Positions 7,082 to 63,257 are shown, counted from the first letter of the stretch. The stretch is DNA of 64,000 nt from Patescibacteria group bacterium (GCA_041742135.1 JBGSJG010000008.1:232964-296963), one strand, 5' to 3'. Notes: generated by a model not told the origin, from the letters alone. A program made the numbers and translations.

Positions 7082-7168
7082 AAATAAGTATTATACCGTA
7101 AATAACACAATTGTGTCGTGAACAGGAGCTAAATTTTATTTTATTATAAAAACATATATACTATAGGA

Positions 7169-8362: not shown

Positions 8363-8376
8363 TTCGAAAGAATAAG

Positions 8377-9546: not shown

Positions 9547-10534
9547 CAAAAAATTAGATAAGATTTTAAAATTCCACTACCCTAATTTCAAAGAATATAC
9601 TTTCCAGAAAAAATTAGAAAAGAACGCATTCTTGGTTAAGTCTCAAAATAAGCAGTTCGTTTTAAAAAAATACGACCAAAAAATAACAAAAGAGAGGCTT
9701 CAATTTTTCGAAGAGTTGCAAAACATGACAAACGCTTATATGCAAATCTCACCTCAGGTTTTAAAGACCAAGGATGGAAATTTAAATGTACATAGAAATA
9801 GTTTTTATTATGATTTAACTGAGTTTGTAGAGGGTGAAATGATACAAAGAGAACAAGTGAAGAATATAAGCGAATTCTTTTACAAAATTGGATTATTTGT
9901 TGGCAAGTTGCATAAATCTTTTTCAGAAATTGAAAGTAAAGGCCAAATCACTATGAATTCGTTGTTGTATACAGCACCAGAAAGTCCAAAACACCTTGTG
10001 GATCTACTAGACTCTTATTACAAAGCTCAGATTGATGACAGCTGGAAAGAAATCATTAAAGAAAAAATAACTATAGTTAATTCATATACAGATCATTTAA
10101 AGGTATTTAACGCTTTGCCAAGGAAAATCGTTCATGGGGATTTGTATTTGAAAAACCTTTTGTTTGATAAATCACAGAAAATCATTGGGTTGATTGACTT
10201 TGTTCAGGCAGGTGTATTTTTCAGATGTTACGAAGTTATAAGAGCATTGATTCAAACTAATAAATTCTTTCAGAATACAGATATTGAGGCTCGATATATC
10301 AAACAATACCTAAAAGGATATCTTCAAGGTAATTCTTTAGATGAAAGTGAAATTCATAACATGCTCGATTTCTATATTTATGTCCAGGCTTCGGATACCG
10401 CCTTTTTAGATATTGAAACCATTGTAAATGGAGGTAAAGAAATCAATGAATATGCAAAATACAGATCTAATAGTCTACACGCACTTTTTAGAAATCGCCA
10501 TTTATTAAATGAAGTAATATACAAAGCTAAATAG
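9530..10534 (+). CDS. aminoglycoside-phosphotransferase/choline-kinase-fold kinase
   Basis: HGDLYLKNLLFD...IGLIDFVQAG (Brenner and DFG-like motifs). Overlaps the upstream gene by 17 nt, suggesting an operon. Confidence 0.6.
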   Translation: MKRPSDKKLDKILKFHYPNFKEYTFQKKLEKNAFLVKSQNKQFVLKKYDQKITKERLQFFEELQNMTNAYMQISPQVLKTKDGNLNVHRNSFYYDLTEFVEGEMIQREQVKNISEFFYKIGLFVGKLHKSFSEIESKGQITMNSLLYTAPESPKHLVDLLDSYYKAQIDDSWKEIIKEKITIVNSYTDHLKVFNALPRKIVHGDLYLKNLLFDKSQKIIGLIDFVQAGVFFRCYEVIRALIQTNKFFQNTDIEARYIKQYLKGYLQGNSLDESEIHNMLDFYIYVQASDTAFLDIETIVNGGKEINEYAKYRSNSLHALFRNRHLLNEVIYKAK

Positions 10535-44917: not shown

Positions 44918-46638
44918 ATTGTTCTTCCTTTTTCAACCCAATAACTTCCAATAGCCAGGCAGTCTATTTCGCTTGTATACAGCGTTTTTATTGCTTGCTC
45001 GGGAGTAGTAACTATTGGTTCACCCCCAATGTTAAAGGATGTATCCAGTACGATTGGTATGCCAGTAAGTTTGTTAAATTCTTCAATCAGTCGATAGTAT
45101 AAAGGACTATTATGTTTATAGACCGATTGATAACGTGCTGTTCCATCTACATGCACAATAGCAGGAACCTCGGCTCTTTTATTTTTCGTGACGTAATGGG
45201 TTAGAAGCATAAAAGGACTATCGCAAGCATCATCAAAGTATTCTTTAGCTCTATTACCGATGACGCTTGGAGCAAGCGGTCGCCACTGCTCACGAGACTT
45301 TATAACATTCAATGTTCTATGCATTTCAGAGATAGAGGGATTTGCAACAATACTTCTAGAACCTAGTGCTCTGGGACCAATTTCCATTCTTCCTTGAAAC
45401 CATCCAACTATTTTCCCGTCAGCGACAGCTCGAGCAGTTTTAAGTGCGATGTCAGAAACCTGGGTGTGAGGAATTTTCAATCTTTGAAGTTCTTCTTCAA
45501 TTTCTTCGTCAGAGTAGCTTACTCCCCAATATGAGTGATCCATTTTGGGAAAACCAGCCTCACCATTTTCGTAGGCAACCTCAAGAGCTGCCCCTAAACT
45601 CACACCAGCATCATTCGCTGCTGGCTGAATATAGAGGGAGTCGGCATATTTTTCAGTCAAAATTCTTCCATTAGCTATACAGTTAAGTGCAACCCCGCCA
45701 GAATAGGCTACATTCCTGTTGCCAGTTTTCTGCACCAATACCGATACCAGATGTAAAACCGTATTTTCTAAGGCTTTTTGTACAGATGCCGCAAAGTCTT
45801 TGGAGAACTGAGAAAGAAGAAGTTCTTCTTGCACTTTTCCTGTTTTTTTAGAGAAAGAGAACTTTTTATCTATTTTTTCTTTCGGAAAACGTTTTGAGAA
45901 ACTATTAAGCCAAAATTCTTGAATAGGTTTTTGTTTATCTAATTGTCCTTTTTGTTCAACAGAATCTAATCCCACGATAGAATATCCAGTATTGTCCAGC
46001 ACTATTTCTGGGAATTCATAGACTGGTTTTCCGTGAGCTGCTAACCCCATTAATTTCCCGGCATCAGATGACCTCAAACCAATAAATGTGCATGCAGCTT
46101 CAATAAAATATCCAAGTGAATATTCGATAGGGAATGTCTTAAAGAATTCAATTTGGCCACCATCAGAATATCCCAATGCTCCGCTTCCAAATTCTCCCTG
46201 ACCATCAAGTACTAATATCGAAGATTTATCGAAACCTGAAACGCGAAAAGCGCTAGCGGCGTGAGCAATGTGATGGGGTACGTATTGAATTTTGGGTAGA
46301 CGTTTTAAATCATTAATCTCTGATAAATTAAAGGGGAATAATTCTTTTAATAAGCCCTTATCATTTGGAAACGGATACTTTAATCCGGCAGCTTTATATA
46401 GCCCTGGCTTATCCCAACCATAGACCACAACATCAATATCCCCAATGGTAAGATTGTGTTGTTCAAGGCAGTATTTAATTGCATGAATTGGAAAAACATC
46501 AAAAGCATAGCGTTTCCGAATAAAACGCTCTTCTTCAACAAACGAAAGAATTTGGTTATCCTTGATCAAACATGCTGAAGCGTCATGACCTTGTGTTTTC
46601 CAACCATTGACCCCTAATATAGTTAGATTTTTCTTCAT
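44914..46638 (-). CDS. NodU/CmcH/TobZ-family carbamoyltransferase
   Basis: N-terminal Kae1/YgjD-like region (GHDASACL, VPHHIAHAASAF) and C-terminal YrdC-like region. Confidence 0.8.
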   Translation of the reverse strand: MKKNLTILGVNGWKTQGHDASACLIKDNQILSFVEEERFIRKRYAFDVFPIHAIKYCLEQHNLTIGDIDVVVYGWDKPGLYKAAGLKYPFPNDKGLLKELFPFNLSEINDLKRLPKIQYVPHHIAHAASAFRVSGFDKSSILVLDGQGEFGSGALGYSDGGQIEFFKTFPIEYSLGYFIEAACTFIGLRSSDAGKLMGLAAHGKPVYEFPEIVLDNTGYSIVGLDSVEQKGQLDKQKPIQEFWLNSFSKRFPKEKIDKKFSFSKKTGKVQEELLLSQFSKDFAASVQKALENTVLHLVSVLVQKTGNRNVAYSGGVALNCIANGRILTEKYADSLYIQPAANDAGVSLGAALEVAYENGEAGFPKMDHSYWGVSYSDEEIEEELQRLKIPHTQVSDIALKTARAVADGKIVGWFQGRMEIGPRALGSRSIVANPSISEMHRTLNVIKSREQWRPLAPSVIGNRAKEYFDDACDSPFMLLTHYVTKNKRAEVPAIVHVDGTARYQSVYKHNSPLYYRLIEEFNKLTGIPIVLDTSFNIGGEPIVTTPEQAIKTLYTSEIDCLAIGSYWVEKGRTI

Positions 46639-46650
46639 AATATTTTTGTT

Positions 46651-47508
46651 TTAAACTCCTCTTTTGGCACCCCATATTTCATTTTGTAATCTACCTAGGA
46701 GTCTATAGCCCTTCTTTTTAGCGTACTCGACTACTCTTTGGGCATTATGCCTTACTTCCTCTGCCGTAACCCCCTGCGGCATAAGAATAACTTGTTCAAC
46801 TGGAATGGCCATCCCTTTAACCCATTCATTTTCAATCTCATCTAAATCTTCATCGTGCATCACTACGAACTTGAACATTGTGTTTGCCTGTGAAAGTGCT
46901 TGAATTACTTCTGGTCTTTTACGAGCATTCTTATGGTTTTGACTATTTTTCAGTTTAGGGCTACAGTTAAATTGACATCTAGAAAGCTGTGACTCTGTGG
47001 GCATAATTGTGCCATTGGTTTCAATTTCAATGACCCAATCCTCTCCCAACTCTGTCATTAATAAGTCTATCTGGTCTTTTTGCAGGAGAGGCTCACCGCC
47101 GGTGATAACAACACGCTTTTGTACATCTGGGTTTTCAGCTCCCCACTCTTGAGAAACACGTTCTGCGGTTTTTTCTATAGACCATTGTTCGCTTTCGGTC
47201 CAAAACTCCTTACTCTTAGGGTTCCATGTATAGTAAGCATCGCACCAGACGCACCTCAAGTTGCAAACATGCAATCTCAAGAAAACAGTTGGTTCGCCCA
47301 TACTAGGACCTTCACCTTGAATAGTGTAGAAAACACTGTCTCCACTAACTCTAAAGTGTCCTTTTTCAAGTCGAACATTTTCTGGAATCCTTAAAGCAGG
47401 ATCAACCTCATTGTTATCGAAGTCAAACGCTCGCTTTAATTCCTCGTCAAAGCTTTCTTCGATCCCATCTCCAAGGAATTGTTTTATTCTTTCTGTATTT
47501 AAAGACAT
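46651..47508 (-). CDS. queE: 7-carboxy-7-deazaguanine synthase (radical SAM)
   Basis: TIQGEGPSMGEPTVFLRLHVCNLRCVWCD. Confidence 0.75.
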   Translation of the reverse strand: MSLNTERIKQFLGDGIEESFDEELKRAFDFDNNEVDPALRIPENVRLEKGHFRVSGDSVFYTIQGEGPSMGEPTVFLRLHVCNLRCVWCDAYYTWNPKSKEFWTESEQWSIEKTAERVSQEWGAENPDVQKRVVITGGEPLLQKDQIDLLMTELGEDWVIEIETNGTIMPTESQLSRCQFNCSPKLKNSQNHKNARKRPEVIQALSQANTMFKFVVMHDEDLDEIENEWVKGMAIPVEQVILMPQGVTAEEVRHNAQRVVEYAKKKGYRLLGRLQNEIWGAKRGV

Positions 47509-47584
47509 TTTTAAGCTTTCTAAATTTCGTTAAATTGATCATATTATACACAAAGTAGGTCAATATTTCTCTGGAGATTCTCTA

Positions 47585-48214
47585 TCATTCTTTGAGCAAC
47601 TCCGTATATCTTTTTATTTGAAATACCTCTGCATATTCACAACCCTCATGCAATAGACCCCTATACTGATTCAGTCCCTTGATTGCCAGATCTATACGTG
47701 ATTTATCCAATTGAGATTGATAAAGAGACAATGCTTTCATTTTTTGATTTATTTTCGATGAAATGTCTTCAGTTAAGTTGTATGTTTGCAATGGTTTGTG
47801 AACCTCGTACAACACTAATCCTTTAGCAGGTTTTTTTGTGAGTTGATTATATCTCCAGAATGACTCAATAATTAGCTGATACGCTATCTTGTGTTCATAG
47901 TCAGCATCATCAGCATGATTACAATAAATTAAATCAGGAGTACTAATTTTAAAAATATCTATTATTTTCTTAATATTTTGTGCAGACACTTTAAAAGATT
48001 GGTCTTTCAATCGAAGAAAATAATGCTCTTTGACTCCCATGAATTTGCAGACTTCTTTCGCCTCTTTTTCCCTCAAATCTTCAATACTATCTCCTGAAGA
48101 TAAATATAAGACATCCACTTCATGATGTGCTTCCACAGCCTTGGCCATTAAACCACCAGCACCAATAATTTCATCATCGGGGTGTGGAGCTACAACTAAT
48201 ATTTTCTTTTTCAT
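47585..48214 (-). CDS. PIG-L/LmbE-family N-acetyl-sugar deacetylase
   Basis: VVAPHPDDEIIGAGG. Confidence 0.75.
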   Translation of the reverse strand: MKKKILVVAPHPDDEIIGAGGLMAKAVEAHHEVDVLYLSSGDSIEDLREKEAKEVCKFMGVKEHYFLRLKDQSFKVSAQNIKKIIDIFKISTPDLIYCNHADDADYEHKIAYQLIIESFWRYNQLTKKPAKGLVLYEVHKPLQTYNLTEDISSKINQKMKALSLYQSQLDKSRIDLAIKGLNQYRGLLHEGCEYAEVFQIKRYTELLKE

Positions 48215-50929: not shown

Positions 50930-52837
50930 CTAACTAGTGAGCATCTTTCCCAAACCCGGGATTTTCCCCACTAGCTCCCGAATTTTGTTTTTACTCGCTA
51001 GAGGTGGCTCATTGGCCGTATTTGCAGACAAAGTGCCATTAGGAGGCGACACAGGGGCGACCACTGCCTCTTTTGGAGGCACTTCTTCAGCTTCTTCCTG
51101 CTTTTCCGGTATTTCTGGACCAAGCAGGATGTTAACGTATTGATCTAAGTCTAGTTCTTCCAGAACCATTTTCTGCAGAGCTCGCTTTCGGATAAGCCAT
51201 CGTTTTACATCTGCTGGGCTGTTTGGGTCTGGTTTATCCTGTGCGATAAACTTGTCATATAAAAGTAAGATCTGATTTAGTCGTGCTTGTTTGTCAGGCG
51301 GAATCACTGGTTCGACTTCAACAATTGCATCTACGTGGACTTTTTTATCCTCTGATTTGAATTCCTTGAAGTTCACACTGTTACCTACGATACGGTACAG
51401 TTTGTCCTCACTTAAGAACTCACGATTCAGTTGAATAAGGATATTGGCTACTGTAGTCAAGGCATTGGAAATGTTCTGAGCGTTTATGCTTAATCGCAAA
51501 TTACTTTGACCCAACAGCATTGCTACTTTGCCAAGTGGCTCGCTCGATGACCTTGGGAGACCCTGCAGATACTCGCCTAACGCTAAAGTTCTGGAGATCT
51601 CGTCCCTGAGGAGTTTGTCTTCATTAAGTCCCATTAAGCTGATTTCTGGCGGCCGTTCGATCACCACATCATCCATTTTCCTGAGTTCCCACACGGCACC
51701 TGGCGAGAAGATGATGTCATTTTTAGTTATTCCAGTGTCTTTACGAATTTTGACCACTGGATCAAGCATCAATATCACATCATCCATTCGTTGGTTGCGA
51801 AGATCAGCAATCTCCATAATTGTGCTTTCAACTGGCTCAACATGACCTGTTGCCCAGAACTCCCACAGCAGTGACATATCGGGGAGGTCTACATAAATAT
51901 GCCCATTGTTAATATCCAGGTAAGGATTTTCGTCATCTCTGATTACTACTTCACCGTTGGCTATCACTACCAATTCGTCTTCTTCGTAGTCCCAGCACTC
52001 CCACAACTCCAATTGCTTTTCCTGATCGTTTTTAACAGGTAGGACTTTTTGTTCTCCCGTATCAGCTTTTTTTAGATCACCGTCAATCTGAGACATTTTC
52101 TTTGTATTGATCTCATAGCGCTCTTTTTTCCAATCTTCCACATTCTTAGGTTCACAATATTCAATATTTTTATAAATGTTGTTTTCACCTCGGTTTTCTT
52201 CCTCCTTGGTGATTTTTTCTTTTGTCTTAACTATCCTATGTATCAGCCAAGGGCAACCTTCCTGAAGGTCTTCTGTTTCCGGAGCTGGTAGAAAATCCCA
52301 CAAGTCACAGAGAATCATTGTTGGATCGTCGTACAACGTTTTGAACGTGCCGTCTGACTTTTTCCTGCTTTTAACTTTCCATGCTAACTTAACTATTCCA
52401 TTTCCATACAACACAGAAGATTCGATCCAATTGGGGAGTTTCTTGGCTAACTCAATAATATCGAAGTCGTAATTCACCAGGTCATCCCAGGAGGATAAGG
52501 ATTTGGACTCTACATCACGTTTGTCTCTTGGGATCACTCGGGTTTTGCGCTTAGCTGTTGCTAGACGTGAGACAACCGTTTTGACGATCTCAAAAGCAAT
52601 CGGCGGCATTAGCCGAGTGTTGTAGGCGTAATTTTGTTTATGTTGATAGGCCCGATATAGTCTGTACATTCTGAGCCACTTGGCTTGGTACGGCTCGCGA
52701 AACTCTTTTGCACGCTTAAATCTGGCCTTCCATTTTTTGAGAAGTTCTTCGTCACGTTCAGAAGGTGTGTATCTTTTCTGAGGTGTGATCTTTGTTTCTT
52801 TAACTTTAGGCTTTGACATAGTGGTGTTGACCAACAA
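50930..52837 (-). CDS. phage portal (head-tail connector) protein, T7 gp8-like; TTG start, or ATG at 52819
   Basis: The segment RPPEISLMGLNEDKL parallels T7 gp8 RPEDISFLQLEKQ; the N-terminal basic/aromatic region and size (635 aa) fit a portal. Confidence 0.55.
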   Translation of the reverse strand: MLVNTTMSKPKVKETKITPQKRYTPSERDEELLKKWKARFKRAKEFREPYQAKWLRMYRLYRAYQHKQNYAYNTRLMPPIAFEIVKTVVSRLATAKRKTRVIPRDKRDVESKSLSSWDDLVNYDFDIIELAKKLPNWIESSVLYGNGIVKLAWKVKSRKKSDGTFKTLYDDPTMILCDLWDFLPAPETEDLQEGCPWLIHRIVKTKEKITKEEENRGENNIYKNIEYCEPKNVEDWKKERYEINTKKMSQIDGDLKKADTGEQKVLPVKNDQEKQLELWECWDYEEDELVVIANGEVVIRDDENPYLDINNGHIYVDLPDMSLLWEFWATGHVEPVESTIMEIADLRNQRMDDVILMLDPVVKIRKDTGITKNDIIFSPGAVWELRKMDDVVIERPPEISLMGLNEDKLLRDEISRTLALGEYLQGLPRSSSEPLGKVAMLLGQSNLRLSINAQNISNALTTVANILIQLNREFLSEDKLYRIVGNSVNFKEFKSEDKKVHVDAIVEVEPVIPPDKQARLNQILLLYDKFIAQDKPDPNSPADVKRWLIRKRALQKMVLEELDLDQYVNILLGPEIPEKQEEAEEVPPKEAVVAPVSPPNGTLSANTANEPPLASKNKIRELVGKIPGLGKMLTS

Positions 52838-52876
52838 AAATGGGGCTTAGGTTCGTCTACTTATGGAAAATAGAGA

Positions 52877-52900
52877 AACCCAAGCCCCGATAGATTCGTT
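52877..52900 (-). promoter_or_regulatory. second copy of the conserved motif (minus sense GCCTAACGAAtCtATCGGGGCTTGGG), ~40 nt upstream of the portal start
   Basis: Matches the 38713-38742 site. Confidence 0.4.
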
Positions 52901-52989
52901 AGGCGGATTTATTTATGCTTTAAGGCTATAAAATAGTAGGGGGAAACGCTAGTTTATTGCTGTCAGAAGCTGTAACTTTGAGGGATTTA

Positions 52990-55401
52990 TCAAAACATTC
53001 GTCTGGTTTTTGTTTCGATCTTCACTTTCCAAACTTCCATAATAAATTTATTTACGTCTTCTTCTGTGATCAGAGGTAACAAATCATCATCTGCACGATC
53101 CATAATCGGTATGTGTCCGTAACGACTTCTTTTCTTTTCTACAAGTCCATGCACTTCCATCATTAGTTGATCATAACTTGGCGAAATTAATTTCCCTTTT
53201 TCTGGCGGACCTTCTGGGTACCATTTTTTTCGATACGCATCTTCAAAAGTTTTTATATAAATTTTCAATTCGTCTACAATCTCTTTCTTACCTAATTTCA
53301 GCGCCAGCACTCCAATGTAGCAAGCTCTTTCCATTATTCTTGGTTCTGTAAAGCCATAACTATCACCTTCGCCTAAAGTCAACATTTTAATAGCAAAGTT
53401 GTAGAGAATTTTTATTGCATCTTTGGCAGTTTGATCTAAATCTTGCTGAATGGCTTTTATACCTATTTTTGATACCGCCTCGATTAAAGAGTCAAACGAA
53501 TTGTTATCTTTGATCTTTTTAAGGTCGTGAGTAAACCACTCTGTTTGGAAGATATACCAACCAATTTGTTTTGTTAATTCCTCTTTGTCACCTGCCCATT
53601 TTTCGTTTTTGGTTAAGTCGACCAATAAACAACCCACATCGGAAATAATCTCACCAAAGGTACTGACTAAAATGTGATTAGCTGTTTTCATTTTTTCTGA
53701 AAGGTACCGTAGAGTTGATCTTAACTCTTCTGTAGTAGTAAAGAATGCTTCCTTCCAGTCCTTGATTTCTTCTTCAGTTTTTGCATTCGTGGCTGCTCTA
53801 GCTGTTTGGAAAATCATCGAGGACATTGCTGTGAATGGGTTAGCTAAGTTTGTTTGAATTGAGAAGCTGTTATCAAGGGAACCTGTCACCATAGAAACAT
53901 ATGCATAAAAAATAATATTCCTCAGATGCTCCCATAAAGACCTTAGTTCCATCTCCAAGTTAAAGTATTTTGTCGCTATCAGTTGAGAGAGAATTGAGGT
54001 GTAAGTATTGATTACCTGTCCCAAAACTACGTTATATTTATTTGTTAGGGCACTCATGGCAATTTTGTCGAGCATGTCATAAATTGATATGAACTCGTGG
54101 TGGAGATTCTGTTTTATTACGATTGGGATTATTTCTTCATATGCTAATATTCCTTGGAACAAAGCCTCCTGATGGTTAAATTTAATAGCGCTCTCAAGCA
54201 GTTGGTTTAAGTAGCCTCTACATTGCTCCATTATTGGGCTTTCTACTTTGCGTTTGGTCAGGTAGTTGATCTCGCTGGCTGACTTACATAACTGCACAAA
54301 AATAGAAATTACTCGAGTAACCCCTTCATTGTCATTTTCTCTCATGTAATTCTCACCGACGGCCACCAATCTTTCGAGTGGAGGAGTTAAGAAAGCACGA
54401 GAGTCACTCGTGGTTGCTAAGATGAATCCGGCAGGCAATACAAACGAGGAATCTTTTCTAGTCTGAAAATACTTTTGAAGGATATTGGTTATTACCTGCA
54501 GAACACCCAGAGCCGAGCTTCGTTCATTGGAGGCCACCAACTTTCCATGGTAATCAAAAAGATAGTTGAGTCTACTGTTGATGTACGCAAACTCTGGTTT
54601 TAAGTATTGGAACGAGGTTGCCAAGGCTTCCTCTTTGGTAACCTTTTTATCAAGCTTTGGCTGTCTAATCAGAACGTCAGCAATTTCCTGAGCTCGTTTG
54701 TGAGTGAAATCTAACTTGGCGAAGGCTTGCTTAGAGGCAATTTTTAATACATTGTTTGGGTCAAGCCGGTCCCTGACCCTTTGATAGAAGACAAATGTTA
54801 GGTAAAAAACAAAGCCAATTAAGAATAACGCCAATTGGAAAGAGAACACTGTAAGTCCCAGATTGAGTTTGCCAAACAGTAGTGCAAAAGAGAAGACCGC
54901 TAAGGAACAACTGCTAATGAGAAAAAATATCACATCGTGCAACCAATCTCTTGCAGCAGTCTCATAAAAGCCCACCGGAATACGCTCTGCGGCATTGCCC
55001 ATTAGAAGGATACTAAGCGAAAAGATAATCGCCAAGATTCCACCGATCATGGCCGCTACTGCTGTGAAGAAGGTGATGGCATCACTCCTAGCAAATGCCG
55101 GATCAATAAACTGCCCGAGTAAAAAAATAGAGCCGATCAGAAGTAAGAAATAAATCAGAGAACCAATAAGCATTTTCTTGGCATTAAGAAAATGGAAGAC
55201 TCGAAATCTGAAGTACGTTTTTACCGTTAATCTGCCTAGGTAAAAATAAAAGATAGCAGTTTTTTTAAGTAAGGAAACCTTTTTAATTACCTTTCTACGC
55301 CAAGAGAGAAGGATTTTCTTTGCAGTTTGAAGAGTTTCCGGGCTGAAGTATTCTTTCAACCCCTTTTTTCGTTTTTTAGTCTTTTTATTATTTGCACCCA
55401 T
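52990..55401 (-). CDS. 803-aa protein: N-terminal 4-5 TM segment plus large alpha-helical cytoplasmic domain. It starts 21 nt after res and may be co-operonic with the Type III R-M.
   Basis: Hydropathy; no catalytic motif recognised. Confidence 0.4.
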   Translation of the reverse strand: MGANNKKTKKRKKGLKEYFSPETLQTAKKILLSWRRKVIKKVSLLKKTAIFYFYLGRLTVKTYFRFRVFHFLNAKKMLIGSLIYFLLLIGSIFLLGQFIDPAFARSDAITFFTAVAAMIGGILAIIFSLSILLMGNAAERIPVGFYETAARDWLHDVIFFLISSCSLAVFSFALLFGKLNLGLTVFSFQLALFLIGFVFYLTFVFYQRVRDRLDPNNVLKIASKQAFAKLDFTHKRAQEIADVLIRQPKLDKKVTKEEALATSFQYLKPEFAYINSRLNYLFDYHGKLVASNERSSALGVLQVITNILQKYFQTRKDSSFVLPAGFILATTSDSRAFLTPPLERLVAVGENYMRENDNEGVTRVISIFVQLCKSASEINYLTKRKVESPIMEQCRGYLNQLLESAIKFNHQEALFQGILAYEEIIPIVIKQNLHHEFISIYDMLDKIAMSALTNKYNVVLGQVINTYTSILSQLIATKYFNLEMELRSLWEHLRNIIFYAYVSMVTGSLDNSFSIQTNLANPFTAMSSMIFQTARAATNAKTEEEIKDWKEAFFTTTEELRSTLRYLSEKMKTANHILVSTFGEIISDVGCLLVDLTKNEKWAGDKEELTKQIGWYIFQTEWFTHDLKKIKDNNSFDSLIEAVSKIGIKAIQQDLDQTAKDAIKILYNFAIKMLTLGEGDSYGFTEPRIMERACYIGVLALKLGKKEIVDELKIYIKTFEDAYRKKWYPEGPPEKGKLISPSYDQLMMEVHGLVEKKRSRYGHIPIMDRADDDLLPLITEEDVNKFIMEVWKVKIETKTRRMF

Positions 55402-55422
55402 ATCTGCCTATTTAACAGCCGC

Positions 55423-57729
55423 TCAAAATTTGAATGCGCTGCTCAAAATTGCATTAAAGCTGTTCTCGCTGTTAACAGCTGTGTGGGGCAGAAGTTTGTA
55501 TATCCATTTTTTCTTCGTAGCGTTTGTAGCGATTTTGCACCATTCTTCTGCCTGCTTTGCTTTTTCCAATACCTCTGGATCTCTTTTGTCGAGCTTACTT
55601 TTATCTTTAACCTCAACTAAATAATAAGCGTCTTTATGTTCAACAATAAAATCTGGATTGTAGTTACCATAAATGTATCTGATCGGCAGTTGTCCATTTC
55701 TTAGTCTCAACCAGCTCACTACCGATTTATCTCTATCGAGTGAGTCTGCCAATAATTTCTCTTGAGCAGAATCAAAGTCATAGGCAGGATATACGCTTTT
55801 CTTATACCCCTCAATAATATTCCCTCTGGATTCAGACTCATTGACCTCATCTTTATTCAAAGGCACAGCAGATTTTTTAACCGTTTTGAAATATGGCTCA
55901 AACTCTAATTCCTCGTCGAGAACTCTATATTCAATTTTAGTCTGCTCTTGAATTTTTTCTCTTAGTTGAGGCAACACATCGTTTAAAATGGTTTGTTCGT
56001 GAAGTTTGACCAATTTTGACAATTCCTTACCTTTTGCTGGCAGTTGATCAAGATAATGTTTAATTATTTTTTGCAGTGTAGCTTTAAAAGAGACATCAAA
56101 TTCGCTCATCTCCAGAATTATTAATCTGACCATTCTGTTAATTGGATCAATTCCTTCTTTAATTTCAATATCGCCAGCTTCTTCTGTTTCCTGAGAGACA
56201 ATATCGGCTTTAACAAGTTTGGGGGTAATCTTCTTAAGTTCTTCTAGTCGCAGTTCTATAGGAAAGAACTCCAGTTTATTACTAGATTTTACCTTTGCCT
56301 CCACCACGGGGATACTAATCAAAAGTTTTTTGTCTTCAACAGGCTTAATTTCAACAGTTTTAAGCCCCTCTTTCTTTTCAGCTTTCTTAACTCCTAATCC
56401 TTCAGCGACTTCATGAGCGACCGAAACTACTCTAGAAAAGTTGTCATGCGAAATAATGTCCAAAGAGTCTAACTCCTCAACGCCTGTAAGCTCACCAAAA
56501 GGTAATCTCAAACCCCTACCAATTGTCTGTTCAATTAAAGTCTTGCTTATTGATGCTCTAAAGGGAATTATCGTATAAACGTTTTTAACATCCCAGCCTT
56601 CTTTGAGTTTGTCTACATGAATAACAATTTCATTTTTATTGACAGGGTAGGGTTCTTCCAAACGAAGAAGTTGGTTAATGGAATCAACCTCACTTTCGCT
56701 TGTCACAAGCAAGGTTTTGTTTTTATAATAACCTTCAAAAAAATCATCACTCTCAATCAAACTTTTTACATCTTTTGCATGCTGAATACTTTTTGTTGTA
56801 AGCAGGGTAATTGGGAGAACAAATGGTAGCTTGTTATTTTTACAATACTCCTCAATCAAGGCCTTCTTTTCTTGATGTCTTCTAATACCATCCTCAAGTT
56901 TGACCATCTCAAGATCGCCTTTGTAGGTATAATCATCGCTTCTGGCAATAACATAGGGCACCTTGATATACCCTCCTTTTGCGCCATTACCATTGCCTAG
57001 GCTCTCCAAAGCCTTCTTAGAGTCGTTTATGGCGTCTCCAAGCGTGTATGAGTAGACAATATTCTCACTGATTGGGGTAGCAGTAAATTCTAATCCGAGT
57101 TCTGGTTTTAGGTGGTTGATTGCTTTTATAGACTTGAGGCCACGATACCGATGACTCTCGTCCATCATTATCACAAGATCTTTTTGCTGGAGAAGTTCAG
57201 CAAAGCTGGATCCCAATGTCTCTTGAAACTTGTGAAATTTAAACTCAACGTCAGTTCGCTCGTTGAATATTTTTTGAATGTTAAACACATATATATTTAG
57301 CGATTCAAAAAGTTGATTGGCAAAATTAGAATACTCATAGTTTTCGCCGGTTATTAGATTGAACAATGGAAAATCGGTTAAACCTTCGAAAACATATTTT
57401 TTGCTTCCCGGGGTAAAGTTTTCAATCGTTTTTGTGTAGATTGTTTCACCCGGGGTAAGTATAAAAAAGTCCTTCAGACCTTTCGTTTCATATAGGTAAG
57501 CAATCATTGCTGCCATGAGCCTGGTTTTACCCACACCTGTAGCCAGAGCGAAGGTAAAGGAAGGAAACTCAGTATCAAACTTAATGTTTCCCACCAATTT
57601 GACTTCAATATCTTCTATGCTTTCCTTACCCAATTTAACATTCGAAAGTAATGTGTCTAGCTTTATCAGTGAAAGCTCTTGTGGTTTTCTTAAACTTAAT
57701 TCTTTAGTGGTTTTATCGATTATCTTCAT
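55423..57729 (-). CDS. res: Type III restriction enzyme Res subunit (SF2 helicase plus C-terminal PD-(D/E)xK)
   Basis: ATGVGKTRL (motif I), IMMDESHRY (DExH), C-terminal NPDFIVEH...LVEVKDK. Overlaps mod by 4 nt. Confidence 0.75.
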   Translation of the reverse strand: MKIIDKTTKELSLRKPQELSLIKLDTLLSNVKLGKESIEDIEVKLVGNIKFDTEFPSFTFALATGVGKTRLMAAMIAYLYETKGLKDFFILTPGETIYTKTIENFTPGSKKYVFEGLTDFPLFNLITGENYEYSNFANQLFESLNIYVFNIQKIFNERTDVEFKFHKFQETLGSSFAELLQQKDLVIMMDESHRYRGLKSIKAINHLKPELGLEFTATPISENIVYSYTLGDAINDSKKALESLGNGNGAKGGYIKVPYVIARSDDYTYKGDLEMVKLEDGIRRHQEKKALIEEYCKNNKLPFVLPITLLTTKSIQHAKDVKSLIESDDFFEGYYKNKTLLVTSESEVDSINQLLRLEEPYPVNKNEIVIHVDKLKEGWDVKNVYTIIPFRASISKTLIEQTIGRGLRLPFGELTGVEELDSLDIISHDNFSRVVSVAHEVAEGLGVKKAEKKEGLKTVEIKPVEDKKLLISIPVVEAKVKSSNKLEFFPIELRLEELKKITPKLVKADIVSQETEEAGDIEIKEGIDPINRMVRLIILEMSEFDVSFKATLQKIIKHYLDQLPAKGKELSKLVKLHEQTILNDVLPQLREKIQEQTKIEYRVLDEELEFEPYFKTVKKSAVPLNKDEVNESESRGNIIEGYKKSVYPAYDFDSAQEKLLADSLDRDKSVVSWLRLRNGQLPIRYIYGNYNPDFIVEHKDAYYLVEVKDKSKLDKRDPEVLEKAKQAEEWCKIATNATKKKWIYKLLPHTAVNSENSFNAILSSAFKF

Positions 57730-59423
57730 ACTTTAAATTTCCTTAATAATACATCTGGAACTCTTTTAACTTCTATATTATCTGGTAATTTTAAATTTTT
57801 GGAAATAGTTTTTGCATAGATGACAATATAGTCAGCCTCGACGCCCACTTCATTTTCTAGAACTCTCACATAGTCCTGAGTAACGTATTGCTCAGTAACA
57901 TGAGCTATAGTTCTCCCAGCAATTCCGTGTAGCCCATTGTCAGGGTGTAACAATTTAAATCCTTCAACTTTTAGTACTGCTCTAATCAAAGGACCATTGA
58001 ACATCTTGGGGTTGAGAACTGTTAGTTTAAGGTCATTATCTTGAACGAATAAGCTCTCGCCAAGTTCAAAATACTTGAACCCACTGCCACCGTTCCAACG
58101 TGCTGTTTTAGTGATTCCGCTTTTATCTTTACCAAGGACAATTTTTTCTAATCGAGGAGTAATATGTGTCTCTGCGTGTCCACCTATTTCTACCATGACC
58201 CATTTTCTGCCCATTTTATGTGCGACTGCACCAGTTGTTCCAGATCCCGCAAAGCTATCCAATACCCAATCACCCTTTTCTGTCGCTAGGTCAATGATGC
58301 GTCTTAGGAGGGTTTCTGGTTTTTTACCTCTCCTGAAGTCTACCGATCCTTCGTTGGCCAAATCAGCTTTGGGAATCTCAGCATGACCCCAGAAATCAGT
58401 CATTTTGTTTTCTTTGACAATACCTTCTTCAGTTTTAGAAGCAGAATCTTTTAACCAAGCAAATAGCTCTTTATTTAAGTAGTAATTTGTAACTTCTTGA
58501 CCCTTATATCTGCCTCTACTCGGGATATAATCTACCGAATACAAATTTTTATCCATTCTCGAAATTAATTCGTGTTGAAATGAATTTTCTTTTTGAGGGT
58601 TGGTTGTTCTGAAGATGTTCTCGAAATTATTCTTATACTGTTCTCTAATTTCTTCTTCTCTGTCAGCAAAACTCCTTAGAGAAATGGATTCAATATCATA
58701 ATCTGAGTGTTTATAAATTTTCACCATTTCGCCGTTGGATTTCGAAGCAAACTCTCCAATTAGTTTTTTAGAACCCTTATTCTTGAGGATATATCGATAT
58801 CGTTGCATCACCTTTTTTTCCAATGGATATCTGCTAAGAGCTTGTGCTAAGTCAATTGAAGCTATATCTTTTGCAAATACCAAAACATACTCATGAGTGT
58901 TTACAAGAAACTTTCCACCCTGACCAATACCAGCACTACCTGATCTTTCATATGCTATCTGTGCCAAGAAGTTTTTTCTACCAAAAACTTCATCTAAAAT
59001 CATTCTGCAGTAATGTACTTCTGTATCGTCTAAGTGAATCCAGATAGTCCCATCTTTTTTAAGTAGTTTATGCAAGAGCGTAAGTCTATCTCGCATCATT
59101 GTCAGCCAGATTGAGTGCTCTAATCCATCATCGTAATGATCGAAGGCTTGTCCTGTGTTAAATGGAGGATCTATATAAACTAGCTTTATCTTGTTTCTAA
59201 AATCTTGAAGTAGTGCTTTGAGAGCAAGCAGGTTATCTCCCTTAACTAACATATTTTCAGAGTTTTTTTCACCAAATGATGATTTTTCAAGGAAAATACG
59301 AGGCTCTGATACTCTCGGATCTTTTTTGTCTACCCAAACGTATGTCTTTTCATTCAAGTCATAAAAGAGACTCTTGTCTTTGTTAAACCAGGTTAGTTCT
59401 AATTTTGTATCGTTTTTAGCCAT
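57726..59423 (-). CDS. mod: Type III R-M Mod subunit (beta-class N6-adenine/N4-cytosine DNA methyltransferase); the ORF is open to 59486 but the internal Met (MAKNDTKLELTWFNKDK) is the likely start
   Basis: VYIDPPFNTG (motif IV) precedes DSFAGSGTTG (motif I). Confidence 0.8.
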   Translation of the reverse strand: MAKNDTKLELTWFNKDKSLFYDLNEKTYVWVDKKDPRVSEPRIFLEKSSFGEKNSENMLVKGDNLLALKALLQDFRNKIKLVYIDPPFNTGQAFDHYDDGLEHSIWLTMMRDRLTLLHKLLKKDGTIWIHLDDTEVHYCRMILDEVFGRKNFLAQIAYERSGSAGIGQGGKFLVNTHEYVLVFAKDIASIDLAQALSRYPLEKKVMQRYRYILKNKGSKKLIGEFASKSNGEMVKIYKHSDYDIESISLRSFADREEEIREQYKNNFENIFRTTNPQKENSFQHELISRMDKNLYSVDYIPSRGRYKGQEVTNYYLNKELFAWLKDSASKTEEGIVKENKMTDFWGHAEIPKADLANEGSVDFRRGKKPETLLRRIIDLATEKGDWVLDSFAGSGTTGAVAHKMGRKWVMVEIGGHAETHITPRLEKIVLGKDKSGITKTARWNGGSGFKYFELGESLFVQDNDLKLTVLNPKMFNGPLIRAVLKVEGFKLLHPDNGLHGIAGRTIAHVTEQYVTQDYVRVLENEVGVEADYIVIYAKTISKNLKLPDNIEVKRVPDVLLRKFKV

Positions 59424-59430
59424 AATTCTT

Positions 59431-60717
59431 TTATCCCTTATTGTAAACGCTGAATTCACTACCGGATAATACAGGAGTTTTGCCAACGTACATTTTCTTC
59501 ATTTTTTTGTCAGTCAGATTAAAAGCGTGACCATTGCCAATTTTATTATTGGCAAGGGAAAGGGGACTTTTACCGAGATTTACTTGATAAGCAATTGTGT
59601 CCATAAAAGCTACCCTGCCAATCAAGTTGCCTTTTAGCACCTCGAATGCTACAAAATAGTGGTTATTGCCTTGCTTTACTTTTTGAGCAACAAAGCTGTT
59701 GTCTCCCACGCTTACAAAATCCTCGGCATTACCCGTGCCTTCTCTTATAAAATTACGAATAGGCTTTAAATTCCCTGAGAAAACATTTGAAAGAACTCCA
59801 CTTTTGTCTGCACAATAAGTAAAATATTCTAGCGCCACCTTCGCCACAAAGCGGGCAGTATTCACATCTACATCTTGAGACGCAATGAAACTCGACTTAA
59901 TTTGTTTTGGCTGCTCGTCATCATTGACTGTTTCCTTGCTTGATCCTGATTTTAACCCCAAATTCTTTAGTGCAGCTTGCACAATTTCAGATGAATCGTC
60001 TCTATCTCCAATCCAGTCTGCCGATTCAGTTCCTTCTCTAAAACTTCTTATCTTATATTGCAGCTTTTTAATTTTATTTTGGGATTTTATATTAGCCACT
60101 TCCTCTGCGAAGATGAGGGCATGGAGGTTACCTTTTTTTAACAAAAGAATGGGGTCTTTGGTAAAACCGACTTTATCTAATGCACTTTTTACTAATAGCA
60201 ACAGTGGATTGTATTCAATTGTGGTTTCGGGAGAAAAGTGGAATTTTAGGAGGCTTGAATCGTAAAGAATAACTGGACTTTGTTTACCTGTCTTTCTTAT
60301 GAGGAGAAGTCTTGCTATTAAGCCTTCAAAACTTTTTTCTGCAAAGTGTTTTTCAATTGTCTCGCCCAATTTGCTATTACATTGGTCACAAACAACATCC
60401 CCTTGAAAGAATAAATCCGGCTGAAAATTACCCATAAACTGGCTCAAAATGTGAGCCTTTTTCTTGAAAGAGTTTGGTTCTTGGCTACTGCAGTAAATGC
60501 ATTTGGGGGTTTGTCTATTCATATTTATTTTCTTATTGTTCAAGATTGCCTCAATATCTTTCGGATCATAGCGCCTGTCACCACGTTCATTCACTATAAT
60601 TGCTTTCAGCTTGCCTCGTTTATCCCAACGCCTTAACGTTTCCGAATGAACGTTTAGTATTTCGGCCGCCTGCTTGATAGTTAGCAGCTTTGGTAGCTGA
60701 TGTTTTTTCTTCGGCAT
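59431..60717 (-). CDS. HTH (excisionase/MerR-type) plus HNH/Zn-ribbon plus large unknown C-terminal domain protein, 8 nt upstream of mod
   Basis: LTIKQAAEILNVHSETLRRWDKRGKL; CIYCSS...KKAHI...CDQCN. Confidence 0.5.
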   Translation of the reverse strand: MPKKKHQLPKLLTIKQAAEILNVHSETLRRWDKRGKLKAIIVNERGDRRYDPKDIEAILNNKKINMNRQTPKCIYCSSQEPNSFKKKAHILSQFMGNFQPDLFFQGDVVCDQCNSKLGETIEKHFAEKSFEGLIARLLLIRKTGKQSPVILYDSSLLKFHFSPETTIEYNPLLLLVKSALDKVGFTKDPILLLKKGNLHALIFAEEVANIKSQNKIKKLQYKIRSFREGTESADWIGDRDDSSEIVQAALKNLGLKSGSSKETVNDDEQPKQIKSSFIASQDVDVNTARFVAKVALEYFTYCADKSGVLSNVFSGNLKPIRNFIREGTGNAEDFVSVGDNSFVAQKVKQGNNHYFVAFEVLKGNLIGRVAFMDTIAYQVNLGKSPLSLANNKIGNGHAFNLTDKKMKKMYVGKTPVLSGSEFSVYNKG

Positions 60718-60760
60718 ACCTATACAAAATTATACAAAAATAATGACTGAAATGGTATAG
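60701..60760. repeat. copy A of a duplicated promoter/5' cassette (ttcttcggcatacct-atacaaaattatacaaaaataa-tgactgaaatggtata)
   Basis: ~80% identical to 63188-63250. The minus sense contains TATAAT ~12 nt before the ATG of 59431..60717. Confidence 0.6.
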
Positions 60761-60787
60761 CAATAAGCGAAAGAGTCTTCATAAAAG

Positions 60788-62209
60788 TCATGTTTGGTTG
60801 ACTGATTTGAGTCTTTTCCATATTTCTACCATTGCTAGCGTATCTAGCCTGCAGTACTTGAGTAAATTCTTTCTAACTTGATCTTTTTGTTCTTCTGAAG
60901 CATTCCCATGCACAACCTCCCACCATCGGGTCATAGCTGTTGCCCCTTCGGCAATTTCCATATCATCGTAACTAAGCTCGGGACATAATACTGGTAAAAC
61001 TTTTTTAATAGAGGCACTGCCATGAAAGCGGTAGTCAACATAAAGACCATTTTTAAAAATATCCATTAGATCGAAAACTCGTCCATTAATACCTTCAATC
61101 TCGTTGCTGTAAACTGGTTGTAGAATGGCTAATTCTTCATTCCGCTTACATTCAAAGTGTTTGTTCCAGACGATGACTGAACCACTATCACCAATAACTT
61201 TCATTAGCGCCTCGGTAAACTGAGGGCTAGGTTCATCGACTTCAGTAGTGATAAATTCGTAGTGGCTTAATTGAGTATCCTCTGGCTTTGCCAATACGTG
61301 TAAGGAGAATTGAAAGACGATATGTTGATAGGGTGTGTAGCTGTCATGAATAGGAATAGCAGGCCCAAATGTTTCATAGTCTAAAAAGTAATGAGGGAAG
61401 GTTAGATTTCCCAACTCTCTACTTATTCCCTCTCGGTCGATTATCGCCTGTTGAGTTTTAATTGAACGTAGTTGAAGTATCTGTTTGGGGTTTAAGTCTT
61501 CCGTTTCATCAATATCTACAAGGTTTGAATAGCCTTTTTCTACCAGTTTTTCGTACTGACCTACTTTCCACCATGACAAGTCATAAATTGGGTACTCTCC
61601 TAGATTTGGGTGGCATAGTTGGAGGCAGGAGCAGTCGTTAGGTTTATAGCAGCGATTTTCTGGTGGATTATCTGCTTTTAGAACTTCTAACGCCTCGGAC
61701 CGCAATTTGAAGACTTCATCCTCAAGCTTAGCGATTACGTTTGCCATGTCTTCAACCAAGAAAAACTTTTGTAAGTCGATTTGACCATTTTTTACATAAT
61801 CTCCATTTACATGCACCAGGTATGTTTTATGAACGGGCAGTGTAGCCTTACCAATAAGATGTTGAAACGTCACATCATACTTATTCTGCTTATCAACTTT
61901 AGTACTGCTCTTTATCTCGTATAAGTCATATGTGTTATTAAGTGTGTCATGTACCAAAGCATCAATTCTGGCTTCGTAGTTGCCGTCAGTCAGGACGTAT
62001 TGAAAATCTATAGTGCTTCCAGGGGGATATTCCGCTTCAACTTTGTTTTGTAGAAATTGTTTGGCAAGACGCTCAACTTCATAACCTTGTTTTGCTATTA
62101 ATTGATCATAAGCCGAGAACTTTTTACTCTCCAGTTTGCCATTGACCTCTGCCCACAAGTGCATTGGTGAATCTAGAAATGTAAGGAAGTTGGATTTAGT
62201 TAGTATCAT
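60788..62209 (-). CDS. DUF2779-type protein: N-terminal RecB/Cas4-like PD-(D/E)xK nuclease plus C-terminal DEDD-like 3'-5' exonuclease fold
   Basis: DLYEIKSSTK; CYKPNDCSCLQLC Cys cluster; YFLDYETF. Confidence 0.55.
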   Translation of the reverse strand: MILTKSNFLTFLDSPMHLWAEVNGKLESKKFSAYDQLIAKQGYEVERLAKQFLQNKVEAEYPPGSTIDFQYVLTDGNYEARIDALVHDTLNNTYDLYEIKSSTKVDKQNKYDVTFQHLIGKATLPVHKTYLVHVNGDYVKNGQIDLQKFFLVEDMANVIAKLEDEVFKLRSEALEVLKADNPPENRCYKPNDCSCLQLCHPNLGEYPIYDLSWWKVGQYEKLVEKGYSNLVDIDETEDLNPKQILQLRSIKTQQAIIDREGISRELGNLTFPHYFLDYETFGPAIPIHDSYTPYQHIVFQFSLHVLAKPEDTQLSHYEFITTEVDEPSPQFTEALMKVIGDSGSVIVWNKHFECKRNEELAILQPVYSNEIEGINGRVFDLMDIFKNGLYVDYRFHGSASIKKVLPVLCPELSYDDMEIAEGATAMTRWWEVVHGNASEEQKDQVRKNLLKYCRLDTLAMVEIWKRLKSVNQT

Positions 62210-62229
62210 TTACTGTTATTGATTACTTT

Positions 62230-62481
62230 TTAGTCATAGGGATCAAGTCCAAAATTCTTTTTAGCTCGTTCCTCATTTGCCTTGTTCACTTCTGCAATTT
62301 CATTTCGGTTTCTTCTTTGGATTTCCTCCTCACTTTCCAGCTCCTCAGGGTAAAAGTTTTGTGGCACGCCGTTTTCCATTCTTACCTGAATTTTTTGTTC
62401 CCCGTCTTCTTCCAACTCTTTAAGAACAACTCCCTTGCCCATAACTTTATGCCTAACAACCATTCCTCTCGTAAAATTCAT
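62230..62481 (-). CDS. small (83 aa) protein, 4-nt overlap with the upstream HNH gene
   Basis: ORF; N-terminal GMVVRHKVMGKGVV is KOW/SH3-like. Confidence 0.35.
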   Translation of the reverse strand: MNFTRGMVVRHKVMGKGVVLKELEEDGEQKIQVRMENGVPQNFYPEELESEEEIQRRNRNEIAEVNKANEERAKKNFGLDPYD

Positions 62482-63167
62482 GAAGACACCTCCTCTCTCT
62501 CTTGAAGTAAAAATTCATTTAACTTACCTACTGCCATTGAGATGGCCACCTGACTTTGCCTATAAGCCTCCAGTAATCTGTTTGTAACCTCAGCAAAGGC
62601 GTTCCCCTCAGCCCTTGTGTTTGCGTACATATTAACAAAGGTATTTACTCTCCCTACTCCAGCATATGCTTTGTTGATCTCGTCTCTTAAACCATCTGGC
62701 AAGAGCAGAAGCGAGCCTTGAGCTATGGATCGGTTGTATTCGTTATCATGGAGTATACATCCTATTTTGTCCTGCCATTGAGAGCCGCTTGTGAACTGTT
62801 TTACAACCAACTCATTGTGCCCTAATTCTAGAGACATACCCTCTAACGGGCCGACATCAACATCCCTTGGGGCGGAAATAAGTGCTTCTGGATGCTTGGA
62901 GCAAGTCTCCAGCCACTGTTTCTTATGTGCAAGTAATTCTATTTTAGTGAACTTTCTTCCTCTTGGATGAGCATCGTTGTAATGATTTACCTCAGCGTGG
63001 CACTCAAAACATAGTGGTATGGCATTCTCAATATCGTCACTTCCACCATCAGCCTTATGTTCAACGTGATGAAGTTCCATTTTAACGCCACAAAATCTGT
63101 GACACACGCAGCATCTCCTGTGGCAATGAGCTAGTAGTTTTGAAACTTTATTTTTATCAAAAGCCAT
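62478..63167 (-). CDS. HNH endonuclease-domain protein with ~150-aa unknown C-terminal domain
   Basis: CHRRCCVCHRFCGVKMELHHVEHKADGGSDDIENAIPLCFECH. Confidence 0.6.
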   Translation of the reverse strand: MAFDKNKVSKLLAHCHRRCCVCHRFCGVKMELHHVEHKADGGSDDIENAIPLCFECHAEVNHYNDAHPRGRKFTKIELLAHKKQWLETCSKHPEALISAPRDVDVGPLEGMSLELGHNELVVKQFTSGSQWQDKIGCILHDNEYNRSIAQGSLLLLPDGLRDEINKAYAGVGRVNTFVNMYANTRAEGNAFAEVTNRLLEAYRQSQVAISMAVGKLNEFLLQEREEVSS

Positions 63168-63187
63168 ATTATTTATTAGTTGCCCAT

Positions 63188-63250
63188 TAGTTCTTCGGCA
63201 TACCTCTATTTAATTATACAAAAATAAAGCCTAAATTGGTATACTTGCAG
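63188..63250. repeat. copy B of the same cassette, in the divergent intergenic region. On the minus strand it carries an ATG CCG AAG AAC TAA remnant of the MPKK start.
   Basis: Direct alignment with copy A. Confidence 0.6.
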
Positions 63251-63257
63251 CACAACC

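Follow-up and report, generated by a model that had tools for sequence, protein, structure and literature searches.

A putative modular defence operon of Patescibacteria framed by a shared promoter/HTH start and a terminal membrane protein

Background

Type III restriction-modification (R-M) systems of the EcoP15I/EcoP1I type pair a beta-class N6-adenine methyltransferase (Mod) with a restriction subunit (Res) that combines a superfamily 2 (SF2) helicase and a C-terminal PD-(D/E)xK endonuclease. Nuclease genes are also found inside R-M operons: at least 16 HEPN clades are linked to such operons, and a multi-pronged defence logic has been proposed for them by analogy with PrrC (Anantharaman et al. 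2013, PMC3710099). Small regulator-like genes may stand first, as in the methylation-based system MADS, where mad1 is dispensable and its deletion barely affects defence, and for which the models require MAD6, MAD7 and MAD8 (bioRxiv 10.1101/2023.03.30.534895). Here, we present an analysis of a locus from a Patescibacteria group bacterium, located in a 64,000-nt stretch of DNA (GCA_041742135.1, JBGSJG010000008.1:232964-296963; hereafter the window), in which a Type III mod-res pair lies between a gene fusing a helix-turn-helix (HTH) domain to an HNH nuclease-like module (HNH5C) and a gene for an 803-aa membrane protein, which we call M803.

Several other known systems are relevant for comparison. 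Zorya ZorA and Kiwa KwaA are membrane-anchored defence sensors, the P2/P4 hot spots and the E. coli immigration control region are defence hot spots between conserved genes, and integrons are arrays of cassettes. The Patescibacteria, or candidate phyla radiation (CPR), are tiny-genome episymbionts thought to be reliant on R-M, and to our knowledge they are largely without CRISPR.

Results

A total of 67 loci (L-numbers) were collected, and their open reading frames (ORFs) and protein clusters (c-numbers) were mapped; the ORF maps are mechanical. Comparison of these loci shows window positions 52834-60765 to be one instance of a predicted modular defence operon that is widespread in Patescibacteria/CPR. 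Its putative frame is opened by a conserved extended -10 promoter and an HTH gene and closed by M803, here followed by a terminator-like hairpin, with interchangeable cargo in between. In the window, the predicted cargo consists of the nuclease-like HNH5C gene and a canonical Type III mod-res pair.

The contexts of M803 were compiled from approximately 40 non-redundant loci with a visible upstream gene, which derive from pattern-seeded scans and not from a census of the 779 clusters of the family. In nearly all of them M803 comes last in a densely packed cassette: its upstream neighbour runs in the same direction in 36 of the 40 loci, with a gap of at most 21 nt or an overlap in 26 of those 36, and the immediate upstream neighbour is an R-M subunit in 14 of the 40. 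M803 follows Type III mod-res in the window, L004, L026, L043, L045 and L057, Type I systems in L007, L025, L027, L028, L030, L032, L047, L048 and L054, and Type ISP/IIG systems in L031, L035, L044 and L056, one of which includes an SNF2 helicase. The Type I cargo is itself diverse, with three kinds of R subunit (EcoEI-, EcoR124- and HSDR_N-type) and the gene orders R-M-S, M-S-R and M-M-S-R. Further linked cargo includes HEPN_AbiU2 (L024), HEPN_Cthe2314, a ThsB-like TIR protein (L047), SNase (L060) and DUF4238 (L002/L029), and three uncharacterised genes recur between R-M and M803, namely c19 (460 aa), c44 (237 aa) and c30 (189 aa). In four loci M803 stands alone (L008, L034, L051, L023). A neighbour-joining tree of M803 places the R-M linkage in several deep branches, and close relatives in the tree carry differing cargo.

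Judged from these contexts, the M803 family looks like a generic component of defence operons and not like a Type III accessory. The original prediction, which was made from the window alone, had proposed that the genes flanking mod and res could be an accessory or defence component riding with the R-M system. A partnership specific to Type III is not supported, as both HNH5C and M803 occur independently of mod/res in relatives, but the broader idea survives for the M803 family in its generic form.

Different cargo is found on a common chromosomal flank: the window and L004 carry HNH5C and Type III, L057 carries pP_pnuc_1 and Type III, and L024 carries AbiU2 and a 237-aa gene. The window operon is also a mosaic. 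Its HNH5C and res are closest to those of L018/L019 (79-83% and 87-89% identical, respectively), which are without M803, while for M803 the closest match is L004 (94% identity), the res of which is only 75% identical.

Stacking and loss of cargo are also visible. A second cassette, present only in the window genome, lies directly upstream (60766-63252, minus strand) and starts with a duplicated promoter and a 4-codon HTH remnant, ATGCCGAAGAACTAA (63201-63187), followed by a stop. On the same strand it encodes a 229-aa HNH protein (62478-63167), an 83-aa ORF that overlaps the HNH gene by 4 nt (62230-62481) and a 473-aa DUF2779 protein (60788-62209). According to blastn, the 2.4-kb insertion (60766-63190) is absent from L004, L037, L057 and L024, where a 555-aa flank gene abuts the HTH promoter, and the alignment shows promoter and HTH start duplicated around it. 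DUF2779 genes are also seen near M803 in L024 and L027. In L062, the cargo is deleted with the promoter kept, and some 11 codons of the HTH gene are joined in frame to the start of M803. This homology at the start of the ORF makes the locus a deletion derivative, and its reading as an ancestral empty site was rejected. L021 (~5700-9983) has an intact M803 beside a 255-aa res remnant, and a segment with a serine recombinase replaces HTH, HNH5C and mod; from this arrangement, the R-M system of L021 is read as decayed or replaced, with M803 kept.

The promoter was found by locus comparison and the terminator by folding. In the window, the cassette promoter region (60718-60765, minus strand) has the extended -10 TGTATAAT (TATAAT at 60734-60729) approximately 10 nt before the ATG and a TATACC box approximately 43 nt upstream of it. 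The shared element reads aGTATAcCAAt, ~17 nt, TTTTTGTATAAT, ~10 nt, ATG, with fixed spacing (-43 and -18), and stands before the opening gene of the cassette, and only there, in the window, L004, L014, L020, L024, L026, L057 and L062; L001 conserves the -10 only. A TGTATAAT-like -10 of its own precedes M803 where it is solo and is lacking where it is linked to cargo. At the other end, between M803 and a portal-like gene, an intrinsic-terminator-like hairpin (52834-52888, minus strand) has a G+C-rich outer stem of about 13 bp and an inner stem of 7 bp, followed by AUUUUUG. The RNA fold of 52830-52990 reaches -42.2 kcal/mol (z = -4.8), and none of 200 shuffles was as stable; a pattern scan missed the hairpin because the stem-loop exceeds its loop limit.

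The lone portal-like gene (50930-52837, minus strand) follows directly after this terminator and matches SU10_portal (4.8e-9) and a PHROG head-tail adaptor/portal family; no other phage structural genes were seen near it. It is found with M803 in the closest lineage only (L004, L021, L037, L038), and IMG/VR lists the L037 contig as viral.

The minus strand carries four ORFs in the order fusion gene (59431-60717, 428 aa), mod (57726-59423; 565 aa counted from its ATG, with a longer form starting at a TTG, 59486, in the mechanical ORF list), res (55423-57729, 768 aa) and the terminal M803 gene (52990-55401, 803 aa). They are taken as real genes and not chance ORFs because homologues of each are numerous, with E-values as low as 0. 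The closest relatives in the databases belong to metagenome-assembled genomes (MAGs) of candidate division WWE3, Woesebacteria and other Patescibacteria, which places the window in a CPR genome. All four had been placed correctly in the original prediction, as had the 4-nt ATGA overlap at the mod/res junction and the 21-nt gap between res and the M803 gene; the 8 nt given there before mod are 7 when read from the TAA of the 428-aa gene to the ATG. With this layout, the four genes very probably form one transcription unit.

Mod matches N6_N4_Mtase in Pfam (1.1e-43) and, over its whole length (aa 5-562), the PADLOC family MTase_III (PDLC03636, 1.6e-123), and in its translation motif IV (DPPF) precedes motif I (FAGSGTT). 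It is a canonical Type III beta-class N6-adenine methyltransferase by these matches. Res matches ResIII (1.7e-21) and RE_endonuc (7.7e-07) in Pfam and REase_III in PADLOC (6.6e-90), with a marginal mad8 match (0.0079), and its translation contains GVGKT and DESH of an SF2 helicase and a C-terminal PDF...EVK of a PD-(D/E)xK endonuclease. The features of a Type III system, that is, domain and motif order in Mod and helicase, nuclease and a position directly 3' of mod in Res, are found in both proteins. The pair, as originally predicted, has the signature of an ordinary, canonical Type III R-M system: here too mod precedes res with a 4-nt overlap, and both subunits have the domains typical of EcoP15I/EcoP1I. 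Unlike in these systems, the window Res is short (768 aa), and mod and res form the middle of a four-gene operon that starts with an HTH-nuclease fusion and ends with a membrane protein.

The 428-aa protein starts with a DNA-binding domain of the HTH_17/MerR/Xis type (aa 1-63; 60529-60717, minus strand), whose homologues in sister cassettes are encoded by a separate first gene of 60-82 aa. This domain matches MerR_1 (6.7e-11) and HTH_17 (1.6e-10) at aa 11-62 in Pfam and mad1 in PADLOC (5.8e-11), and a structure search assigns it to the Xis/BldC fold, with excisionases as the best structural matches. The HNH5C module (aa 66-428; 59431-60522, minus strand) comprises an HNH_5 Cys4 zinc/HNH motif (aa 73-127) and an alpha/beta C-terminal domain of about 300 aa. 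The HNH_5 match (PF14279) reaches 30.4 bits against the Pfam gathering cut-off of 27.5, and in the HNH5C alignment (A2) C110, C113 and N114 are invariant and H124 nearly so. Structure searches of PDB and BFVD gave no match beyond the HTH and hence no relative there for the C-terminal ~300 aa, and a profile search with A2 found no sequence relative of HNH5C in PDB. No ATPase or HEPN domain was detected in the 428-aa protein by Pfam, PADLOC and NCBIfam scans, and PADLOC-DB v2, including its Zorya, Kiwa, PDC and HEC candidates, has no match to HNH5C beyond the mad1 hit of the HTH.

In L018, L019 and L020, the equivalent sequence is divided between two overlapping genes, one for an HTH protein of 67-69 aa and one for HNH5C of 363 aa. 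HNH5C is a separate gene of 334-363 aa in other loci, and the fused proteins keep the internal Met that starts HNH5C elsewhere (A2). An HTH_17 gene opens the cassette in at least 12 loci and is 55-87% identical to window residues 1-63; such short HTH ORFs were identified in L001, L007, L018-L020, L024-L026, L028, L030 and L031. By these alignments, the 428-aa protein results from a lineage-specific fusion, through loss of the HTH stop codon, of an HTH gene and an HNH5C gene that sister loci keep apart. The original description of an HTH, an HNH/Zn-ribbon and a large uncharacterised domain in one protein agrees with the MerR_1/HTH_17 and HNH_5 matches. Its remark that the protein is far larger than a C protein is true of the size, but what is present is an HTH of C-protein size (60-70 aa elsewhere) fused to the first cargo gene.

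HNH5C precedes mod-res in four lineages (the window, the L004 group, L018 and L019), and the HTH-HNH5C-mod-res cassettes of L018-L020 are near-identical in make-up but lack the M803 gene. HNH5C is found without R-M in L015/L016, between genes for 183 and 644 aa, and in L017; distant homologues without R-M are found in L066 and in L064, there following a DUF5677 gene within a prophage-like island. Conversely, other nuclease-type genes lie between HTH and mod in other Type III cassettes, encoding HEPN (L026, L045), pP_pnuc_1 (L057) or a 267-aa uncharacterised protein with an Rx4H motif (L043), and in L024 an HEPN_AbiU2 gene occupies the HNH5C position with no R-M. The role of a dedicated partner of the Type III system is not supported for HNH5C by these contexts.

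M803 is predicted to have a Lys/Arg-rich, basic N-terminal tail, four transmembrane (TM) helices at about aa 77-205 (window ~54787-55173) and then an alpha-solenoid of about 580 aa. Its AlphaFold2 (AF2) model is all-alpha (predicted local distance difference test, pLDDT, 82.9; predicted template modelling score, pTM, 0.73), in keeping with the membrane-anchored protein with a 600-aa helical domain that had been envisaged. M803 has no match in Pfam, NCBIfam, PHROG or PADLOC-DB v2 (with the same candidate sets), and a PDB sequence search with its profile (A1) gave nothing meaningful. PADLOC thus assigns Mod and Res to Type III, the 428-aa protein only to mad1 through its HTH, and M803 to none of its families. 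The partners of mod and res are indeed non-canonical, as first supposed: beyond the HTH and HNH_5 domains they have no defence-database annotation, yet they recur beside R-M genes.

An exhaustive profile search at E <= 1e-3 returned the 779 clusters of the M803 family (50% identity), nearly all of 750-830 aa, in which TM2 and the polar motifs YLFDYH, SDS and GFTEPRIM are nearly invariant. Distant members resemble DUF2254 (PF10011), with sub-threshold matches in 10 of 37, the best at 27.7 bits against a cut-off of 28.8. In these, the four-TM N-terminal module aligns to profile positions 6-168 of 368, and the window M803 itself gives no match; the 580-aa C-terminal solenoid is without a counterpart in the profile. 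Our literature search found no functional description of DUF2254 or of membrane partners of CPR R-M systems. A scan of viral contigs for M803 returned one contig, the same as metagenome locus L037, and M803 is therefore not a common phage gene.

Some further observations concern M803 loci and their neighbours. The protein c19 (448-461 aa) is encoded directly 3' of Type III res and either precedes M803 or takes its position (L018, L019, L020, L026, L042, L043, L050), and has no Pfam or PADLOC match; it is another candidate accessory gene. One M803 contig (L035/L036) occurs in MAGs labelled Neomarinimicrobiota and Deltaproteobacteria, and other M803 loci are labelled Gammaproteobacteria or Actinomycetota; these non-CPR labels are probably binning or labelling errors and not a true spread beyond CPR. 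In L007 and L025, a cassette of HTH, Type I R-M, M803 and HEPN_Cthe2314 lies between two large serine recombinase genes, accompanied by small recurrent genes (DUF5659, c18, c40, c58, c59), and may be an integrative element or two tandem elements.

Elsewhere in the window, a minus-strand cluster (43781-48214) encodes a QueC-like PP-loop protein, a NodU/Nol-type carbamoyltransferase, a QueE-like radical SAM protein and a PIG-L deacetylase, adjoined by kinases and an epimerase, and could serve glycan biosynthesis or a 7-deazaguanine-type nucleic-acid modification. The segment 16000-38000 has a G+C content of 0.42-0.47 compared with 0.35-0.40 elsewhere and contains a 1670-aa ORF (22114-27126) and a run of minus-strand genes.

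Discussion

We consider a modular CPR defence operon, with M803 acting at the membrane, to be on balance a probable account of this locus as a whole. Under this model, a single, nearly leaderless mRNA would be transcribed from the TGTATAAT promoter, and the HTH domain may autoregulate that promoter through the GTATAC-like boxes in the manner of an R-M controller protein or mad1. Mod would methylate host DNA, and the Mod-Res complex would cut unmethylated incoming DNA. HNH5C would fill a slot for a second nuclease, which is held by HEPN, AbiU2 or pP_pnuc_1 in sister loci, and by analogy with PrrC-EcoprrI may be an independent back-up or abortive-infection nuclease instead of a restriction-enzyme subunit. 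M803 is proposed to act at the cell membrane with no need for a particular upstream partner, because its partners are too diverse, solo copies have their own promoter and it is retained after cargo loss. Its most likely role would be that of an autonomous envelope-level module against phages or mobile genetic elements (MGEs), of an exclusion or sensor type, co-expressed with systems that target nucleic acids. The fixed 3' position of M803 and the shared 5' promoter/HTH may serve as homologous handles, with recombination at these ends swapping, stacking and deleting cargo.

Each part of the operon has likenesses to known systems. As with C proteins and mad1, a small HTH gene comes first, directly after a promoter with repeated GTATAC-like boxes. 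The window HTH is of the MerR/Xis type (HTH_17), and the 428-aa protein lacks the small XRE-type HTH (HTH_3) of classical C proteins; unlike both these and mad1, the HTH, for which DNA binding is predicted, is fused to a 363-aa nuclease-like protein. Apart from the mad1 match of the HTH and the marginal mad8 match of Res, no match to mad6 or mad7 was found, and the locus is not a MADS system by those models. As in PrrC/RloC and the R-M-linked HEPN families, a predicted nuclease gene lies inside an R-M operon, with HEPN, HEPN_AbiU2 or pP_pnuc_1 in that place in sister loci. HNH5C is built differently, with a beta-beta-alpha-metal HNH_5 motif and an uncharacterised C-terminal domain instead of an ABC-ATPase-HEPN architecture, and its resemblance to PrrC/RloC appears to be positional only. 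M803 resembles ZorA and KwaA in its multiple TM helices, its large predicted cytoplasmic helical part and an operon shared with nucleic-acid-targeting effectors, but it has no PADLOC Zorya or Kiwa match and no ZorB- or KwaB-like partner, is last in its operon and not first, and has a solenoid instead of a coiled-coil tail. The frame as a whole is comparable to defence hot spots and integron arrays in that conserved ends enclose interchangeable defence cargo, cassettes are stacked behind a repeated promoter, and cargo can be lost with the ends retained. It differs from them in that HTH and M803 move between genomic contexts and CPR lineages, and in that its 3' end is a large membrane protein apparently co-transcribed with the cargo; no integrase domain, as expected of an integron, was found among the scanned genes adjoining the cassette, and neither attC-like sites nor att repeats were identified, with no search aimed at them made.

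Four other explanations were weighed. HTH-HNH5C and M803 might be dedicated accessory subunits of this Type III system, forming a four-component system, and the identical gene order and tight spacing in the close relatives L004, L009-L014, L037 and L046 would agree with this. These relatives form a single lineage, however, in which M803 is about 94% identical. Outside it, L018-L020 have HTH, HNH5C, mod and res without M803, and L057, L026, L043 and L045 keep mod-res and M803 with another gene in place of HNH5C. With M803 also found after Type I, IIG and non-R-M genes and on its own, and HNH5C also found without R-M, dedicated subunits are very improbable, and the comparative data largely refute them. 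A looser dependence is conceivable, in which M803 is a generic adaptor whose solenoid binds the nuclease system encoded upstream and tethers or activates it at the site of DNA entry, like the Zorya and Kiwa sensors. Alpha-solenoids are protein-binding folds, translational coupling is found in many loci (the M803 gene overlaps hsdS by 4 to 8 nt, or follows hsdR after 1-2 nt), the wedged proteins c19, c44 and c30 could be adaptors, and the M803 clades partly track R-M type. That correlation may instead reflect host phylogeny, and the partners, which include Type I of three kinds, IIG, III, HEPN, TIR and SNase, are too diverse for one binding surface; with solo genes under their own promoter and the retention of M803 without cargo in L062, we regard a partner-dependent M803, whether tether or sensor, as unlikely.

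M803 might also have no part in defence, being a conserved membrane protein, for example a cell-envelope protein or a DNA-uptake or type IV secretion system (T4SS) scaffold, that happens to flank a defence hot spot. In the lineage where the 555-aa gene forms the flank, M803 keeps its syntenic place and has diverged about as fast as that flank while the cargo changes, and its strong conservation, with TM2 nearly invariant, points the same way. M803 of L022 follows a VirB4-like ATPase and an M23 peptidase and that of L002 lies near T4SS-pilin and T2SSE genes, and these contexts fit a non-defence membrane role. Yet the adjacency of R-M and M803 recurs in unrelated contexts and in deep branches of the family, M803 sits in the operon of the cargo without its own promoter, and a mere hot-spot flank would not move with cassettes between CPR lineages; this explanation, too, seems to us unlikely. 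Lastly, the frame from HTH to M803 may be part of an integrative element that a large serine recombinase mobilises; the Xis-like HTH would then be a recombination directionality factor and R-M an addiction module or cargo. Large serine recombinases lie 4-9 kb away in L001, L007, L008, L021, L025, L026, L030, L034, L048 and L063, accompanied by the recurrent small genes HTH_3, DUF5659, c18 and c40, and the excisionase-like structure of the HTH, the portal-like gene after the window M803 and the IMG/VR listing of L037 would be in line with mobility. In the window, L004, L024 and L057, however, no recombinase was found in the 11 kb surrounding the cassette and the left flank is housekeeping (YceG, sigma factor), and the HTH is always promoter-proximal in the cargo operon and never adjoins a recombinase. 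An integrative element is, in our view, quite unlikely.

The modular-operon model that we favour nevertheless has several points to answer, among them the L022 and L002 contexts and the nearby recombinases, which leave room for a frame that belongs to integrative elements. The residue before the catalytic His is Ala and not Glu in most HNH5C members. Co-transcription of the four genes is deduced from spacing and motifs, a generic scan gave fewer promoters than shuffled sequence, and terminators were not enriched. M803 shows 36-94% identity between CPR lineages, which is good conservation for a defence gene, and the approximately 40 loci on which its contexts are based are a pattern-based sample of the family. 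Its fold is a generic alpha-solenoid without a functional homologue, and any mechanism for M803 is for that reason a guess. We accordingly hold an autonomous envelope-level defence function of M803 only tentatively, with rather less than even confidence; a non-defence function, as hot-spot flank or in an MGE, is a serious if minority possibility.

The Type III mod-res pair, nuclease genes in R-M operons and small first-gene regulators are of known kinds. We could not find a description of the M803 family, of its systematic terminal place in varied defence operons or of the shared promoter/HTH frame. The full proposal, in which promoter/HTH and M803 form an undescribed CPR-wide frame for defence cassettes, M803 is a new membrane-anchored sensor or excluder beside whichever nuclease system is loaded, and the ends are recombination handles, is put forward as a somewhat doubtful possibility. 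The dataset ties a family of 779 clusters to defence operons of at least four R-M architectures, and a guilt-by-association screen would flag M803 as a candidate defence component. The promoter/HTH and M803 frame appears able to load, stack and lose defence cassettes, and the genes wedged before M803 (c19, c44, c30, c59 and HNH5C) are immediate defence-gene candidates. If M803 does act in membrane immunity, R-M defence would gain an envelope layer that is partner-agnostic, and M803 would also be a marker gene for uncovering defence genes in CPR genomes.

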